A DNA stretch of 64,000 nt, from contig DATELH010000002.1 of assembly GCA_035276765.1 (NCBI GenBank), positions 235,671 to 299,670 of the forward strand, given 5' to 3'. The notes below the pieces were generated by a model that was given only the letters and a program-made list of their open reading frames with translations, had not been told where the DNA came from and ran no database searches. Within the stretch, counting starts at the first letter, position 1. Every line of letters starts with the position of its first letter. Below, piece by piece: positions 29,671 through 55,942 of the stretch. A program made the position numbers and the translations under genes. Source of the DNA: Candidatus Saccharimonadales bacterium (lineage in GTDB: Bacteria; Patescibacteriota; Saccharimonadia; Saccharimonadales; UBA4665).

Positions 29671-31062
29671 CTATTTGGTTGGCTTAGCCGGCCGGGCAAC
29701 ATACGTGCGGGTAGTGGAGCCGGCCAGCACGGCAGTTTTTCGCGCACGCACAAGTGCGGACACAGGCTCGGCTTGCGGATTGCGCTGCTCGGGTTTCTCG
29801 CCCACATATTGCCGCGTTGTTGCACCATGCAGTACGCTGCCACGCAGGGCATTGCGGTCGGCAAAGGCTTGGGCGATTTTCCGTTCCGGGTGTTCGTCGC
29901 CCAATACAAGGTCGGCCCGAGAAAGCTCGCGCGATTGACGCACGTATTCGGCAATGACCAGCTCGTCGTACAGCTTTTGCGTCTCTTTGGAGACGTTTTT
30001 GCCAGATACAATTAATACGAATGCTTCATCACCGGTAGCGTGTTCTCGTGCATAGGCCATGGGGAGAGCGGCAGCCGGCTCTACCTCAACACCCAACTGG
30101 TCGCTGAGGTAGCGACGGGCTTGTGCCAAACGCAACTTGTCGACCGTTGCAAACGAGTCCACAAAATCCTTATTGGCGGCGACGGCTAGGTTTCGCGCGT
30201 TCAGGCTTTCCTCGGTGATGGCAAGCGCATCGCAATCGGTATCTAGTTCACCTGATAAGAACAGGTCGACCGACTCCTCACCGGCTTGGATTTTAGCTAC
30301 GGCCCGGCCCGCTGCATCGGTGTTTTCGGGTTGCACTGCCACGACTTCAATGTTTGGCCCGAGCTCTCCAGTTGCCTGCGCCTCGCGAATGGGGAGGGCG
30401 ACACCCAGCACCAAGCCGAGCCCGGCCGCCGGCACAAGAACGACTGCTTTTTTATCGCCCTGTCCAAGTCCGCGTGCTTTGAAGTCTTCGACGAGTTCGT
30501 TACCGACACTCAGCTGGCCAGCAACTACATCTTCGTGGCCAAACGGTCCTACAACAGCCACGCCCGGTTCGCCCTCTCGCGCTTCGGCGGCAGTTTGCGC
30601 CAGTTTGAATGTCTCGTGAAAGTGAAGGGTGGCACCACCTTCGGCAAGCGGCGTCGCTTTGGCTTCGCTTGCCGATTTGGGCAGTTCGATCACTACTTCT
30701 TTGCCGTATTTTTTGCCAGCCAGCAGTACGCCACGACCGTGGTTGCCCGTGCTGTAGGTGACGATGGTGTTGGCTTCGGTTTGCATCACTGCGTTCGTAG
30801 CGCCGCGCCGCTTGTATGAACCGCTGTCTTGCTCGTACTCGGGCTTGACCAGCACGGGGCTGCCGTTGAGTGCGTCAACCTCTAAAAGTTCGGTGCGGGC
30901 CACGCCCATTTCGCCGTAAAACTGTGCGCGGTATTCAGTCTCGTCGCGCAGCGGCTGGCCGCGGTCGAGCACTTCGCGCGCCACCACACTGCTATCGGGC
31001 AATTCGGCTAAACTGAGCGGCCTCTCCGCAGGTAGTGGCGTTTGTTCAAGCGTTGCAGTCAT
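29671..31062 (-). CDS. PLP-dependent threonine/serine dehydratase-like enzyme (fold type II) with N- and C-terminal extensions
   Basis: 463 aa with the PLP-lysine context SGSYKRRGATN, YSTGNHGRGV, VAGQLSVGNELVEDF, VVAVQPENTDA, EPAAALPMAY and LIVSGKNV. The SD AAGGAG lies 5 nt before the ATG. Confidence 0.75.
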   Translation of the reverse strand: MTATLEQTPLPAERPLSLAELPDSSVVAREVLDRGQPLRDETEYRAQFYGEMGVARTELLEVDALNGSPVLVKPEYEQDSGSYKRRGATNAVMQTEANTIVTYSTGNHGRGVLLAGKKYGKEVVIELPKSASEAKATPLAEGGATLHFHETFKLAQTAAEAREGEPGVAVVGPFGHEDVVAGQLSVGNELVEDFKARGLGQGDKKAVVLVPAAGLGLVLGVALPIREAQATGELGPNIEVVAVQPENTDAAGRAVAKIQAGEESVDLFLSGELDTDCDALAITEESLNARNLAVAANKDFVDSFATVDKLRLAQARRYLSDQLGVEVEPAAALPMAYAREHATGDEAFVLIVSGKNVSKETQKLYDELVIAEYVRQSRELSRADLVLGDEHPERKIAQAFADRNALRGSVLHGATTRQYVGEKPEQRNPQAEPVSALVRARKTAVLAGSTTRTYVARPAKPTK

Positions 31063-31079
31063 GATTTCTCCTTATAATA

Positions 31080-31108
31080 AAAATCCCCGGAGTTGTTCCG
31101 GGGATTTT
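31080..31108 (-). terminator. Intrinsic terminator of the putative Ile attenuator
   Basis: Minus strand reads AAAATCCCCGGA-ACAAC-TCCGGGGATTTT followed by TATTAT. It lies immediately 5' of the SD of the dehydratase-like gene. Confidence 0.75.
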
Positions 31109-31138
31109 GACTAGCTAAAATTTTAGTATGCCATTAAA

Positions 31139-31195
31139 TCACCCGGCGCTCGGGAGGATAATAATGGCAATAATGTTTTGGCGTGTCACCAACAT
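31139..31195 (-). CDS. Putative attenuation leader peptide MLVTRQNIIAIIILPSAG (18 aa)
   Basis: Hand translation of the minus strand gives five Ile codons among codons 8-13. The stop TGA lies inside the anti-terminator arm. The ATG is 7 nt after a CATACT -10 box. Confidence 0.6.
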   Translation of the reverse strand: MLVTRQNIIAIIILPSAG

Positions 31196-31202
31196 ATGCG
31201 CA

Positions 31203-50417: not shown

Positions 50418-50954
50418 ATGTCTAAACTTATTCTTTTGAACGGCGCGGTTGCCGTTGGCAAATCCACCATAACCGAACGCTACCTAAACGAACATCCGCT
50501 GGCCCTCGGCATCAGCGGCGACAACATAATTGTCATGCTTGGTCAGTGGCTCCAGCATGAACCCGAAGCGTGGAACATGGTTTTTGAATTTACGAAAGCG
50601 CTTACAGCAACACACCTAAAAACTGGTCACGACGTTGTGCTTCCATATTTGCTCGTCCATCCCGGTCACGTCGAAGCGTTCGAAGCTTTAGCGCAGCAAC
50701 ACAATGCGCAATTTTACGAAGTCTTGCTCTATGCCGACCGAGAAGACGCCATTCAGCGTGCCTTACAGCGTGGCACCTGGGGCGAACCAGGCTCGCCACC
50801 ACTTACCGCCGCTGATCGGCCCATCCTCGAAGAAAAGTATGACACCATGATGCAAATCGTTTCCGCGCGGCCACAGACCATCAAAATACCAGCCACTAAA
50901 GGAGCGGTAGAGGAAACGTATGCGCAATTCCTCGCAGCTATTTCCAGGCCATAA
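50418..50954 (+). CDS. P-loop NTPase / small-molecule kinase-like protein (AAA_33 / zeta-toxin-like fold)
   Basis: Walker A is LLNGAVAVGKST, and it is ~178 aa. TATAAT at 50406..50411 lies 6 nt before ATG 50418. The track start is TTG 50403. Confidence 0.6.
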   Translation: MSKLILLNGAVAVGKSTITERYLNEHPLALGISGDNIIVMLGQWLQHEPEAWNMVFEFTKALTATHLKTGHDVVLPYLLVHPGHVEAFEALAQQHNAQFYEVLLYADREDAIQRALQRGTWGEPGSPPLTAADRPILEEKYDTMMQIVSARPQTIKIPATKGAVEETYAQFLAAISRP

Positions 50955-50964
50955 GTTACTGCAT

Positions 50965-50993
50965 TTGCAAACCAATACAAAACAAGCTACACT
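50965..50993 (+). promoter_or_regulatory. Putative promoter of the aromatic leader peptide (TTGCAA-17-TACACT)
   Basis: TTGCAA at 50965..50970, a 17-nt spacer, and TACACT at 50988..50993. The ATG follows 6 nt downstream. Confidence 0.55.
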
Positions 50994-50999
50994 GGCACC

Positions 51000-51074
51000 A
51001 TGAAAACCTTGCAAGCCGCAGCCTTTTATTGGTTTACCGACACTCGTGTGGCGGCTTGTTCTGTGCGTTCATAA
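51000..51074 (+). CDS. Putative attenuation leader peptide MKTLQAAAFYWFTDTRVAACSVRS (24 aa)
   Basis: Hand translation. Consecutive Phe-Tyr-Trp-Phe codons at 51024..51035 are flanked by mutually exclusive pairing segments and followed by a terminator. Confidence 0.5.
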   Translation: MKTLQAAAFYWFTDTRVAACSVRS

Positions 51075-51094
51075 AAGACCAAAAATGCCAACAG

Positions 51095-51119
51095 AAACCG
51101 CCGCACCCAGGCGGTTTTT
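51095..51119 (+). terminator. Intrinsic terminator of the putative aromatic attenuator
   Basis: Stem AAACCGCC / GGCGGTTT, loop GCACCCA, followed by TTAATTT. It lies 20 nt upstream of the SD AAAGGAAG of orf 51140. Confidence 0.65.
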
Positions 51120-51139
51120 AATTTCAGAAAGGAAGAAAT

Positions 51140-51442
51140 ATGATAACAAATAGGGAAAACGCACCCGCCCTCACAGTAAGCGGCATGGAGCTGCGCGAGT
51201 TAATTACGGACCGCAAAGTACCCGAGGCATTAACAGTCCCGGCGGATGCAAGCGACTCGCTAGCCCTTGCCAAGGAGAGGACGGCTTTGTTGTATGCCTC
51301 AGTTGAGGCGCGCTCCATGCGGCCACCGCTCAAAATTGGCGGTGTTGTGCTGCACAATACGAGCGAAATAAACTTGGCCGGGGCCGGCATGCTCGCCAAT
51401 ATTCGCGCCGAACAAGCTGGTTTACCGCAACCTGAGGTATAA
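51140..51442 (+). CDS. Hypothetical protein (orphan), probably co-transcribed with trpS
   Basis: 100-aa ORF with SD AAAGGAAG. It ends 10 nt before trpS. Confidence 0.5.
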   Translation: MITNRENAPALTVSGMELRELITDRKVPEALTVPADASDSLALAKERTALLYASVEARSMRPPLKIGGVVLHNTSEINLAGAGMLANIRAEQAGLPQPEV

Positions 51443-51452
51443 TAAAACCAAT

Positions 51453-52487
51453 ATGAGTAAACCAGTTATCTTAACAGGGCTGCGGGCCAATAACGACCTG
51501 ACGCTCGGCAATTATTTGGGTGCATTGTTGCCGCTCATTGATATGGCCAAAACTCGGGCCGACGAGTTTGACGTGCACTTGTTTGTGCCCGACCTGCATA
51601 GTTTTACGACGCCCATCAACCATGGCACGTTGTACCAACAAACGCTCGACAATTTGCGTATTTTCGTGGCCGCCGGCTTGCCGCTCGACCATCCGAGCGT
51701 GCATATTTACCGCCAAAGCTACATCCCAGCACACAGCGAGCTCACCTGGATTTTAGACTGTTTTACTGGTTTTGGCGAAATGAGCCGCATGACGCAGTTC
51801 AAAGACAAATCAGCCAAACTGCACGACGATCGCATTAGTGTTGGGCTGTTCAATTATCCGGTGCTGATGGCTGCCGATATTTTGCTATATAACGCTACCT
51901 ACATTCCGGTGGGTGATGACCAAACTCAGCACCTGGAGTTCACTCGCGACATCGCTGAGCGCATGAACAAACAGTTTGGCGGCGGCTTGTTTGTGGTGCC
52001 AGCGCCAGTACCCAAGCAGCACGATTTTTTTGGCAAAGACCAAGGCCTGCGCATCCGTGACCTCCAAGACCCCACCAAAAAAATGAGCAAAAGCGACGAT
52101 ACCGGCAAAGGCGTGCTCTTTTTGAACGACAATGTAGCAGATACCGTCAAAAAGGTTATGAGCGCCACCACCGATAGCCATGCAGACATCCAATACGACA
52201 TGGCCGCCCGCCCCGGTGTCTCTAACTTGCTGCAAATATTATCGCTGCTGAGCGGCCGCCCGATGGAAAAAGTACTCAGCGAGTGGCAAGGCCAGCCCAG
52301 TTACGGCGAGCTGAAAAAAGCGGTTGCGACGCAAGTAGAGGTGTTTTTGCTGGACTTCCAAAAGCGTTTGGCCGCCGTTGACCAGCAAGCTTTGCTTACA
52401 AAACTCGTCGATGACGAAGCCAAAATGAATGTTATCGCGGGCGAGACGCTAGCACGTGTACAAAGGGCAGTGGGGCTACGGCCTTAG
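51453..52487 (+). CDS. trpS: Tryptophanyl-tRNA synthetase
   Basis: 344 aa with the HIGH-region variant LTLGNYLGAL, GDDQTQHLEFTRDIA and KMSKS (KKMSKSD). Confidence 0.94.
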   Translation: MSKPVILTGLRANNDLTLGNYLGALLPLIDMAKTRADEFDVHLFVPDLHSFTTPINHGTLYQQTLDNLRIFVAAGLPLDHPSVHIYRQSYIPAHSELTWILDCFTGFGEMSRMTQFKDKSAKLHDDRISVGLFNYPVLMAADILLYNATYIPVGDDQTQHLEFTRDIAERMNKQFGGGLFVVPAPVPKQHDFFGKDQGLRIRDLQDPTKKMSKSDDTGKGVLFLNDNVADTVKKVMSATTDSHADIQYDMAARPGVSNLLQILSLLSGRPMEKVLSEWQGQPSYGELKKAVATQVEVFLLDFQKRLAAVDQQALLTKLVDDEAKMNVIAGETLARVQRAVGLRP

Positions 52488-55361: not shown

Positions 55362-55385
55362 AAAGAGCCGCATAAGCGGCTTTTC
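55362..55385. terminator. Bidirectional intrinsic terminator between orf 54918 (+) and rpmG (-)
   Basis: AAAGAGCCGC-ATAA-GCGGCTTTT, flanked by an A-run and a T-run. Confidence 0.75.
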
Positions 55386-55646: not shown

Positions 55647-55721
55647 TGGAGCCGAAGACGAGGATTGAACTCGTGACCCCCGCCTTACCATGGCGGTGCT
55701 CTACCACTGAGCTACTTCGGC
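55647..55721 (-). tRNA. tRNA-Thr (anticodon GGU), CCA encoded
   Basis: Hand-folded, with acceptor GCCGAAG/CTTCGGC, anticodon stem CCGCC/GGCGG, loop ATGGTAA and T-loop TTCAATC. Confidence 0.9.
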
Positions 55722-55758
55722 ACATACAATTCTTCGAAGCTCGAGTTTCATATGGTAT

Positions 55759-55843
55759 TGGTGCAGGGTGAGGGATTCGAACCCCCGAAGGCTGAGCCAG
55801 ATGATTTACAGTCACCCGTGTTTGACCGCTTCACTAACCCTGC
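55759..55843 (-). tRNA. tRNA-Tyr (anticodon GUA), long variable arm, CCA encoded
   Basis: Hand-folded, with acceptor GCAGGGT/ACCCTGC, anticodon loop CTGTAAA, variable arm TGGCTCAGCCTTC and T-loop TTCGAAT. Confidence 0.9.
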
Positions 55844-55866
55844 GTGTTAAAGTTCCGGGCAAGGCT

Positions 55867-55942
55867 TGGAGCCGACAGAGGGATTCGAACCCACGACCCG
55901 CTGTTTACAAAACAGCCGCTCTAGCCACTGAGCTATGTCGGC
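55867..55942 (-). tRNA. tRNA-Thr (anticodon UGU), CCA encoded
   Basis: Hand-folded, with acceptor GCCGACA/TGTCGGC, anticodon stem GCTGT/ACAGC, loop TTTGTAA and T-loop TTCGAAT. There is one U-U mismatch in the T stem. Confidence 0.88.

Follow-up and report, generated by a model that had tools for sequence, protein, structure and literature searches.

A probable tryptophan-responsive leader-peptide attenuator upstream of trpS in Saccharibacteria

How does a bacterium of the Saccharibacteria adjust the level of its tryptophanyl-tRNA synthetase (TrpRS)? The question is raised by a short region that precedes trpS, the gene for this enzyme, in a Candidatus Saccharimonadales bacterium (assembly GCA_035276765.1). 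The gene lies in a stretch of 64,000 nucleotides (nt) of contig DATELH010000002.1, positions 235,671 to 299,670, which is referred to here as the window. A first-pass annotation, made from the sequence of the window alone, had read this region as a leader-peptide attenuator, in which a short open reading frame (ORF) rich in aromatic codons is followed by alternative RNA hairpins that would allow transcription to proceed into trpS when charged aromatic tRNA is scarce. Comparison with relatives supports that reading, since the ORF, its Trp codon and the antiterminator and terminator helices are all conserved there. The element is very probably a Trp-responsive, ribosome-mediated (leader-peptide) transcription attenuator, placed before a small gene, orf100, and trpS.

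All of the sequences and coordinates quoted in the annotation proved exact when they were re-read from the window. The parts of the element, and the genes that it precedes, are the following.

50965-50993, plus strand: promoter read from the sequence, with the -35 box TTGCAA at 50965-50970, a 17-nt spacer and the -10 box TACACT at 50988-50993.
51000-51074, plus strand: leader ORF read from the sequence, 24 codons plus stop, MKTLQAAAFYWFTDTRVAACSVRS.
51005-51023, plus strand: segment 1, the 5' strand of the anti-antiterminator, with the core CAAGCCGC at 51012-51019.
51024-51035, plus strand: regulatory codons Phe-Tyr-Trp-Phe (TTT TAT TGG TTT), the Trp codon at 51030-51032 being codon 11.
51048-51069, plus strand: segment 2, the antiterminator 5' arm and partner of segment 1, through which the leader ORF reads.
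51084-51104, plus strand: segment 3, the antiterminator 3' arm, whose 3' part (51093-51102) doubles as the terminator 5' arm.
51093-51119, plus strand: intrinsic terminator, with its stem at 51093-51102:51110-51119, a loop at 51103-51109 and a T-run at 51115-51119.
51129-51135 and 51140-51442, plus strand: Shine-Dalgarno (SD) sequence AAGGAAG and orf100, the first gene behind the attenuator, encoding a small orphan protein.
51453-52487, plus strand: trpS, tryptophanyl-tRNA synthetase (Pfam tRNA-synt_1b, PF00579, E=1e-55).

Within this layout, the core of segment 1 is, as had been claimed, the exact complement of GCGGCTTG (51051-51058) in segment 2. The terminator, given as AAACCGCC/GGCGGTTT with a T-run at 51095-51119, is also picked up by a generic terminator scan, and the order of an SD-led orf100 followed by trpS agrees with the ORF positions and the Pfam assignment. 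The antiterminator had been recognized only in part. Its proposed core, GTGGCGG (51048-51054) with CCGCCGC (51098-51104), does pair, with one G-U pair among its members, however the helix extends over 16-18 base pairs (bp) and not over the 7 bp proposed. In the window it comprises about 18 bp (51048-51069 with 51084-51104) and folds with -18.6 kcal/mol, as against -14.4 kcal/mol for the terminator hairpin.

Taken by itself, the window makes a case for an attenuator that is suggestive, not compelling. The 132-nt leader folds with z = -2.7 relative to shuffled sequences, a modest value on its own, and the whole 185-nt gap folds with z = -1.15. A search of the whole window against Rfam at gathering thresholds returned four tRNAs only, and no leader family. 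When 50700-51600 was searched at E <= 10, five chance-level matches were obtained (E = 2.8-9.5), with neither a T-box nor Trp_leader among them; of the leader families Phe_leader came closest, with 16.6 bits where the threshold is 55 (E = 7.7).

The comparison was carried out on trpS loci taken from genome and metagenome collections, which are designated below by L numbers. The nearest TrpS in public collections is just 78% identical to that of the window, so that all of the comparative evidence stems from different species. The sole match to the product of orf100 among 5.8 billion proteins is itself, and it has no Pfam domain; it was thus useless as an anchor for finding relatives. With window positions 50955-51452 as the query, BLASTN gave matches upstream of trpS in ten Saccharibacteria loci. 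Each of these has a -35/-10 promoter, a start codon a few nt past the -10 box and a short ORF with Trp in an aromatic run, and in these loci a conserved block, GTGGCGGYTTGTTCYGTGCGTT, is followed by the terminator AAACCGCC...GGCGGTTTTT. Contigs were also sought for ten of the closest TrpS proteins (72-78% identity), nine of which gave DNA, amounting to 12 loci; the element is present in all 12.

A covariance model built from 12 of the elements in relatives gives the window element a score of 95.9 bits (E about 1e-17). Within the 64-kb window it found no second copy, and in 715 kb of trpS loci from outside the Saccharibacteria its best match (E = 0.61) was not significant. It also detects weaker, more distant members (L111 and L104/L105/L113). 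Homologous elements occur in at least 22 distinct Saccharibacteria loci, each upstream of a trpS operon. Conservation of the Trp codon and covariation of the helices in related genomes had been proposed as a check on the annotation. The antiterminator, the terminator and an ORF with one Trp codon in frame are conserved across the 22 elements, and compensatory changes are found in both helix 2:3, the antiterminator, and helix 3:4, the terminator. This homology in relatives is the decisive evidence that the element exceeds chance. A further 27 Saccharibacteria trpS loci, among them those of Nanosynbacter and Saccharimonas and L001, in which trpS follows rpsI by 65 nt, lack the element in the upstream sequence available, several of the contigs being too short to tell. 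It is thus clade-specific and not universal.

The consensus structure returned by RNAalifold for the family is a 16-bp antiterminator, GUGGCGGUUUGUUCnGUG:CAUnGAAGAAACCGCCAC, rather than the terminator. Across 21 sequences, 92.5% of the cells of the antiterminator are paired and 8 of its 16 pairs have changed on both sides; none of 500 shuffles gave a covariation score as high, and slid controls pair in 41-61% of cells. For the 9-bp terminator the corresponding figures are 97.9% of cells paired and 4 of 9 pairs changed on both sides, with 0 of 500 shuffles as high in covariation score, 1 of 500 in the count of both-side changes, and slid controls at 47-59%. Both helices use alignment columns 119-127 (the ACCGCC strand), and antiterminator and terminator are therefore mutually exclusive. 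Compensation across all three strands can be seen by eye in L102, which has GUGACGGC / GCCGUCAC / GACGAC where most members have GUGGCGG / CCGCCAC / GGCGG. The antiterminator hairpin is the more stable of the two in each of the 15 elements that were folded. The 5' half and the terminator 3' arm align badly in the MAFFT alignments A1 and A3, and so covariation was counted on the model-based alignments A4 and A6.

As for the leader ORF, the conserved UGG of 20 out of 21 aligned elements falls within a frame of 21-27 codons whose ATG or GTG start is found 9-11 codons upstream; in the alternative two frames, a start codon at most 12 codons upstream occurs in just 2 of 26 cases. Tryptophan, which accounts for 0.9% of the codons of the window genes, is invariant in the leader peptides (22 of 22) and always occupies codon 10-12. 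The antiterminator arm follows it at 18-20 nt in all but one of 20 ORFs, the exception having 24 nt, and the stop codon of the ORF is reached 16-36 nt beyond the point at which segment 2 begins. The sequence of the ORF 5' half is freely variable, yet the frame stays open. Single-nucleotide differences in spacing put the conserved arm into three reading frames (VAACSVRS, RGGLFRVFA and LWRLSS), and because it is read in all three, selection there acts on the RNA and not on the peptide. An aromatic run of 2-6 residues that includes W is found in 20 of the 22 peptides, with F or Y at position -1 in 77%, at -2 in 50% and at -3 in 45%. Further downstream, the distance from W to the stop codon ranges over 12-18 codons and the aligned peptides have no conserved Pro. 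The leader ORF is probably translated.

One locus, L091, carries two elements in tandem (2218-2355 and 2654-2786) with a 59-codon ORF between them. The upstream copy has kept the antiterminator, the terminator and UGGC but lacks a Trp codon (MRMQRMNKQTCVSHISVAACSVHL). Possibly it is a duplicate in decay, or else the same expression platform put to use with other regulatory codons.

Translation of the ORF appears to begin without a conventional ribosome-binding site. In 14 of 15 elements scanned, the start codon of the leader follows the end of the best -35/-10 match by 6-10 nt, and in the window 6 nt separate the end of the -10 box (50993) from the ATG at 51000. An SD-like motif precedes 2 of 20 leader ORFs, as against 18 of 20 genes behind the terminator. 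With the -10 box ending 6 nt from the ATG, the leader ORF is probably leaderless or nearly so; promoter spacing and the scarcity of SD motifs fit initiation at, or next to, the 5' end of a predicted transcript.

The logic of classical attenuation is known from E. coli trpL and pheST. The parts of the Saccharibacteria element, their conservation, covariation and spacing are as set out above; the dynamics, and the dependence on Trp, would by analogy with the E. coli systems be as follows. Transcription would begin on the ATG (51000) or only a few nt from it, and the leaderless 5' end would be bound by a ribosome. If Trp-tRNA is ample, the ribosome would clear F-Y-W-F and enter the antiterminator 5' arm (51048-51069), which lies inside the ORF. 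With segment 2 occupied in this way, segment 3 would pair with segment 4, the 3' arm of the terminator, and the terminator at 51093-51119 would release a transcript of ~120 nt. If no ribosome is present, segment 1 (51012-51019) would pair with segment 2, leading again to termination. A ribosome stalled with UGG (51030-51032) in its A site, on the other hand, would mask segment 1, while its front edge would come to lie a few nt short of segment 2, which starts 18 nt downstream. The freed segment 2 would then pair with segment 3 once the latter has been made, the antiterminator being favoured by its folding energy (-18.6 versus -14.4 kcal/mol). With the terminator blocked, RNA polymerase would continue into orf100, trpS and probably the genes beyond. 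Scarcity of tRNA-Phe or tRNA-Tyr could possibly also induce the operon.

The pairing of segments 1 and 2 had to be assessed by duplex energy relative to shuffles, since the position of segment 1 shifts between subgroups and covariation cannot be counted by column. In one subgroup segment 1 is the extreme 5' end and includes the start codon (AUGAACAAAC:GUUUGUUC); in the subgroup of the window it is CAAGC(C), at nt 13-20. The 1:2 duplex of the window has an energy of -18.8 kcal/mol, compared with -13.0 +/- 2.6 for its shuffles (p = 0.026), and 11 of 20 elements beat dinucleotide shuffles at p <= 0.05, with a mean z of -1.9. The effect of a ribosome was modelled by placing a 30-nt footprint codon by codon along the ORF and computing the equilibrium probability of the terminator hairpin. 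For the window this probability is 0-0.3 up to and including W (0.25 at W), 0.8 one codon further on, 0.76 three codons on and 0.94 at the stop codon. With the footprint at W, 13 of 22 elements have values under 0.5, and with it at the stop codon 17 of 22 have values over 0.5; where the switch appears, the last permissive codon is mostly no more than two codons from W.

A number of observations weigh against a Trp-responsive attenuator, or against parts of it. The window promoter agrees with the consensus at 8 of 12 positions, a weak match that was missed by a generic promoter scan for that reason. In L081 (758-878) and L165 (2561-2698), where no -35/-10 of its own can be recognised, the element begins 17-21 nt beyond the stop codon of rpsI; in these two loci the ribosomal-protein transcript, and not a leaderless RNA, would carry the leader ORF. 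The alignments used for covariation were fitted to the model structure and hold related sequences, so that the shuffle counts are indications and not probabilities. The 1:2 pairing is no better than that of shuffles in 9 of 20 elements. In the masking folds, antitermination at W is not reproduced in 9 of 22 elements; in 6 of 22 the terminator prevails wherever the ribosome is placed, and in 8 of 22 the free RNA already favours the antiterminator. As the equilibrium model ignores the order of transcription and fails in these 9 of 22, masking is counted as supportive only. The leader also has one Trp codon, compared with two or more in the well-studied trp leaders, which makes its sensitivity uncertain.

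A last difficulty concerns the two codons that follow W. The stretch UGG UUU ACC (W-F-T; window 51030-51038, columns 37-45 of A6) has F at +1 in 17 of 22 peptides and T at +2 in 16 of 22, a conservation that comes close to that of the helices. According to the masking folds, these two codons lie outside the stall positions that favour read-through, and the attenuation model does not account for their conservation. A local hairpin between columns 44-47, in the codons after W, and columns 56-59, at the start of segment 2, was considered and rejected, as it is paired in 73.8% of cells and 438 of 500 shuffles equal it. A scan for partners of the UGGUUUACC block showed that UGGU pairs with ACCG of segment 3 in 92% of cells, and that UGGUUU is complementary to AAACC. 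UGGUUU and AAACC are both near-invariant, however, so that covariation cannot probe this pairing.

Other explanations of the element must be set against these data. It could be a real attenuator that senses all three aromatic amino acids, or the speed of translation in general, and not Trp in particular. Segment 2 would be freed just as well by a ribosome that came to rest on the Phe or Tyr codons immediately ahead of W, and in the masking folds every codon upstream of W is likewise permissive for antitermination. These codons are frequent, positions -3 to -1 being F or Y in 45-77% of the peptides and position +1 being F in 17 of 22. Some of the operons include genes for 3-deoxy-D-arabino-heptulosonate 7-phosphate (DAHP) synthase or prephenate dehydratase, enzymes that are of use for Phe and Tyr too, and in Corynebacterium glutamicum the AroR leader (F-Y-F) controls a DAHP synthase operon (PMC11802643). 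However, W is the sole invariant residue (22 of 22), the most distant members, L111 (KNWR) and L104 (TAWQ), have no flanking aromatic codons, and the sole constant downstream gene is trpS. In addition, W is always nearly the last permissive codon, which suggests that W is the selected one. A response to aromatic amino acids in general is for these reasons possible, though unlikely. A different proposal starts from the conserved residues around W: W-F-T might work within the ribosome much as an arrest peptide does, the pause then depending on the peptide in addition to the supply of tRNA-Trp, and might even sense free tryptophan as TnaC does. This would give meaning to F+1 and T+2, which lie beyond the permissive stall window and for which the local pairing that has been proposed shows no covariation, and to the single W codon, which is unusual in a classical leader. 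Arrest peptides of the TnaC type have W...D...P, end at a fixed distance from W and act through Rho-dependent termination. The Saccharibacteria peptide, in contrast, is unconserved past W+2, its C-terminal half being read in three frames with no conserved Pro or stop context and at a variable distance from W to the stop, and its terminator is intrinsic. The distant members have neither F nor T after W, induction of trpS by high Trp would be senseless, and the complementarity of UGGUUU to AAACC of segment 3 (92% of cells) offers a possible reason for the conservation at the level of RNA. Such a switch assisted by the nascent peptide is considered very improbable. Because the conservation of UUU ACC is explained neither by pairing nor by the logic of the stall window, there is room for a hybrid of the two mechanisms, in which W-F-T would let one Trp codon hold the ribosome at the point where the antiterminator is freed. 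This bolder idea, and along with it the separate one that the element represents the first cis-regulatory RNA class specific to Saccharibacteria or to the candidate phyla radiation (CPR), controlling a Trp/aromatic 'supply' operon with lineage-specific small proteins in the place of its first gene, is a long shot.

Two further explanations do without a regulatory ORF. UGG might be read directly by tRNA-Trp or by a protein, in the fashion of a T-box or of TRAP, the ORF being incidental. T-boxes do control trpS in Firmicutes (PMC1262725), and the conserved UGGC of segment 2 resembles a T-box bulge. Against this, no Rfam family is found at E <= 1 in 50700-51600, and no T-box even at E <= 10; an element of ~120 nt has no room for a Stem I; and the copy in L091 that lacks W has retained UGGC. 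An untranslated RNA would, moreover, not keep a frame, whereas the ORF is in frame with UGG in 20 of 21 elements despite the variable 5' half. A riboswitch of this kind is extremely unlikely. The element might, finally, have no regulatory role, being a plain terminator of the upstream AAA_33 gene or the gene of a small peptide or small RNA, with an ORF and pairings that arose by chance. The modest folding of the window (z of -2.7 for the leader and -1.15 for the whole 185-nt gap) and the weak promoter match speak for this. Yet the genes upstream of the element differ, being of at least five kinds (AAA_33 in the window, rpsI, an rsmB-like methyltransferase and minus-strand genes elsewhere), while the trpS operon downstream is constant, so that the element is not the terminator of the upstream gene. 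An SD-led gene begins 11-34 nt past the element in every case, the antiterminator covaries although a plain terminator has no need of one, and the C-terminal half of the peptide shows no conservation at the protein level. It is scarcely credible, then, that the element is non-regulatory, and a Trp-responsive attenuator is preferred.

Behind the element, trpS is the constant gene. In several loci the first gene encodes an enzyme of the aromatic pathway, as would suit a Trp or aromatic signal: DAHP synthase of class I in L085 (1034-1999), L082 (118-1083), L090 (1110-2039) and L168-L170 (about 1938-2990), DAHP synthase of class II in L171 (1750-2961), and prephenate dehydratase in L081 (889-1743). 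The DAHP synthase frame of L090 is broken into two parts (206 + 81 aa). Neither this enzyme nor prephenate dehydratase would be expected in soil Saccharibacteria, as the group has been described as biosynthetically limited (abstract of PMC7427843). An Asp/Glu racemase gene comes first in L104/105 and L113, and the first gene of L011 gives a weak match to GNAT acetyltransferases, the next protein there matching the AstE/AspA family; the counterpart of the GNAT-like gene in L111 has no Pfam match.

In the window, as in many relatives (L002, L083, L091, L095, L102, L150, L161-L167 and L172), the first gene is a small SD-led ORF of 59-112 codons. In an all-versus-all BLASTP comparison these small ORFs gave matches between close relatives only, and alignments of orf100 with a 94-aa ORF (L161) and a 97-aa ORF (L163) were unconvincing. 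Each small ORF fills the whole gap, and is therefore probably translated. The slot between terminator and trpS holds a different small ORF in nearly every lineage, and so shows fast turnover.

Beyond trpS in the window, at gaps of 5, 0, 23 and 2 nt, come a PseudoU_synth_2 (RluD-like) gene, a counterpart of DNA_pol3_delta2 (holB-like), an assignment which rests on counterparts in relatives, a TPR-like gene and a 147-aa ORF. The order trpS, PseudoU_synth_2, DNA_pol3_delta2, TPR is kept in relatives. As the genes follow one another in tight series and the next strong terminator found by the terminator scan is at 55363-55384, the attenuator may head a longer operon. This terminator is a strong bidirectional hairpin, AAGAGCCGC AUAA GCGGCUUUU, which closes the plus-strand gene run from the attenuator. 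Just past it, on the minus strand at 55647-55942, is a cluster of tRNA-Thr(GGU), tRNA-Tyr(GUA) and tRNA-Thr(UGU). Elsewhere, the window genes include ribosomal-protein genes, rpoA, rpoB/C and tuf.

The first-pass annotation had also pointed to an element of the same design, directed at Ile, some 20 kb away. This element is real. It lies on the minus strand at about 31075-31196, has the following parts, and its 122-nt stretch folds with z = -5.9.

31075-31196 region, minus strand: promoter of the Ile element, with -35 box TTGCAT, -10 box CATACT and 7 nt to the ATG.
31075-31196 region, minus strand: Ile leader ORF, MLVTRQNIIAIIILPSAG, with five Ile codons in seven.
31081-31110, minus strand: terminator of the Ile element, AAAAUCCCCGGAACAACUCCGGGGAUUUUU.
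29671-31062, minus strand: gene of a 463-aa pyridoxal phosphate (PLP)-dependent enzyme, with SD and ATG, after the Ile element (Pfam PALP, E = 4e-42).

The PLP-dependent enzyme is possibly a threonine dehydratase. The presence in the same window of an Ile element built on the same plan has been counted in favour of the attenuator reading of the trpS element.

Saccharibacteria live as ultra-small epibionts; their genomes are reduced and their capacity for biosynthesis is limited (abstract of PMC7427843). In the library searched, nothing relevant was found on leader peptides, attenuation or riboswitches in Saccharibacteria or CPR bacteria, and almost nothing on gene regulation in Saccharibacteria. 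A conserved, covarying attenuator implies that transcription and translation are coupled tightly enough in these cells for the position of the ribosome to serve as a sensor, and Saccharibacteria appear to use leaderless initiation for regulatory ORFs. It is further implied that TrpRS and, in some lineages, DAHP synthase or prephenate dehydratase are tuned to the supply of charged tRNA-Trp, which probably depends on what the cell obtains externally. The family also supplies a covariance model with which Saccharimonadales genomes can be annotated.

The author of the first-pass annotation was aware of neither a trpS attenuator nor a leaderless leader ORF, and in this respect the annotation has to be corrected, as precedents exist for both, in Streptomyces (PMC1262725) and in mycobacteria (bioRxiv 10.1101/834739) respectively. 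Classical attenuators have been predicted upstream of trpS in Streptomyces, for example at trpS2 of S. avermitilis (PMC1262725). Like the Saccharibacteria element, these have a leader peptide with one or more Trp codons and alternative antiterminator and terminator hairpins, and would likewise place the gene of TrpRS under the control of charged tRNA-Trp. The attenuator of an auxiliary trpS in S. coelicolor has reportedly been studied experimentally, to go by the title of a 2010 article by Vecchione and Sello (J Bacteriol 192:3565, cited in PMC4787780). The two systems differ in that they belong to separate phyla and have no detectable sequence relation, the covariance model being blank on the Streptomyces and other actinobacterial trpS loci fetched. 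In the Saccharibacteria element one W stands within an aromatic run, the ORF is probably leaderless and the first gene of the operon varies.

Other actinobacterial leaders share single traits with the element. The aroR leader peptide (Phe-Tyr-Phe) of C. glutamicum lies upstream of the aroF DAHP synthase operon (Neshat et al. 2014, as summarised in PMC11802643). There, an aromatic run controls a DAHP synthase operon through ribosome stalling, and several of the Saccharibacteria elements precede DAHP synthase genes. AroR, however, has no Trp codon and, according to the same review (PMC11802643), responds to Phe, whereas in Saccharibacteria the Trp codon is invariant and trpS always follows. Leaderless short ORFs that encode polycysteine are Cys-responsive attenuators in mycobacteria (bioRxiv 10.1101/834739); they lie at the 5' end of the transcript, have no SD and control an operon by amino-acid supply, in all of which they resemble what is predicted for the Saccharibacteria ORF, and they differ in the amino acid. 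Actinobacterial cys leader peptides have been reported to have no obvious terminators (PMC1262725), unlike the Saccharibacteria element with its clear intrinsic terminator and covarying antiterminator.

A parallel also exists with E. coli trpL (Rfam Trp_leader) and with pheST and pheA (Phe_leader), which have the 1:2 / 2:3 / 3:4 layout that is proposed for the Saccharibacteria element and in which a stalled ribosome frees segment 2; pheST, moreover, is an aminoacyl-tRNA synthetase operon. The E. coli leaders differ in their SD-led ORF and their two or more regulatory codons, whereas the start codon in Saccharibacteria is probably at the 5' end and, in many members, within segment 1. What is new is thus an RNA family with no Rfam counterpart, its host group, and the use of a single, precisely placed Trp codon. 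The mechanism proposed for it is that of the textbook, a known principle extended to a new phylum and not a new principle.

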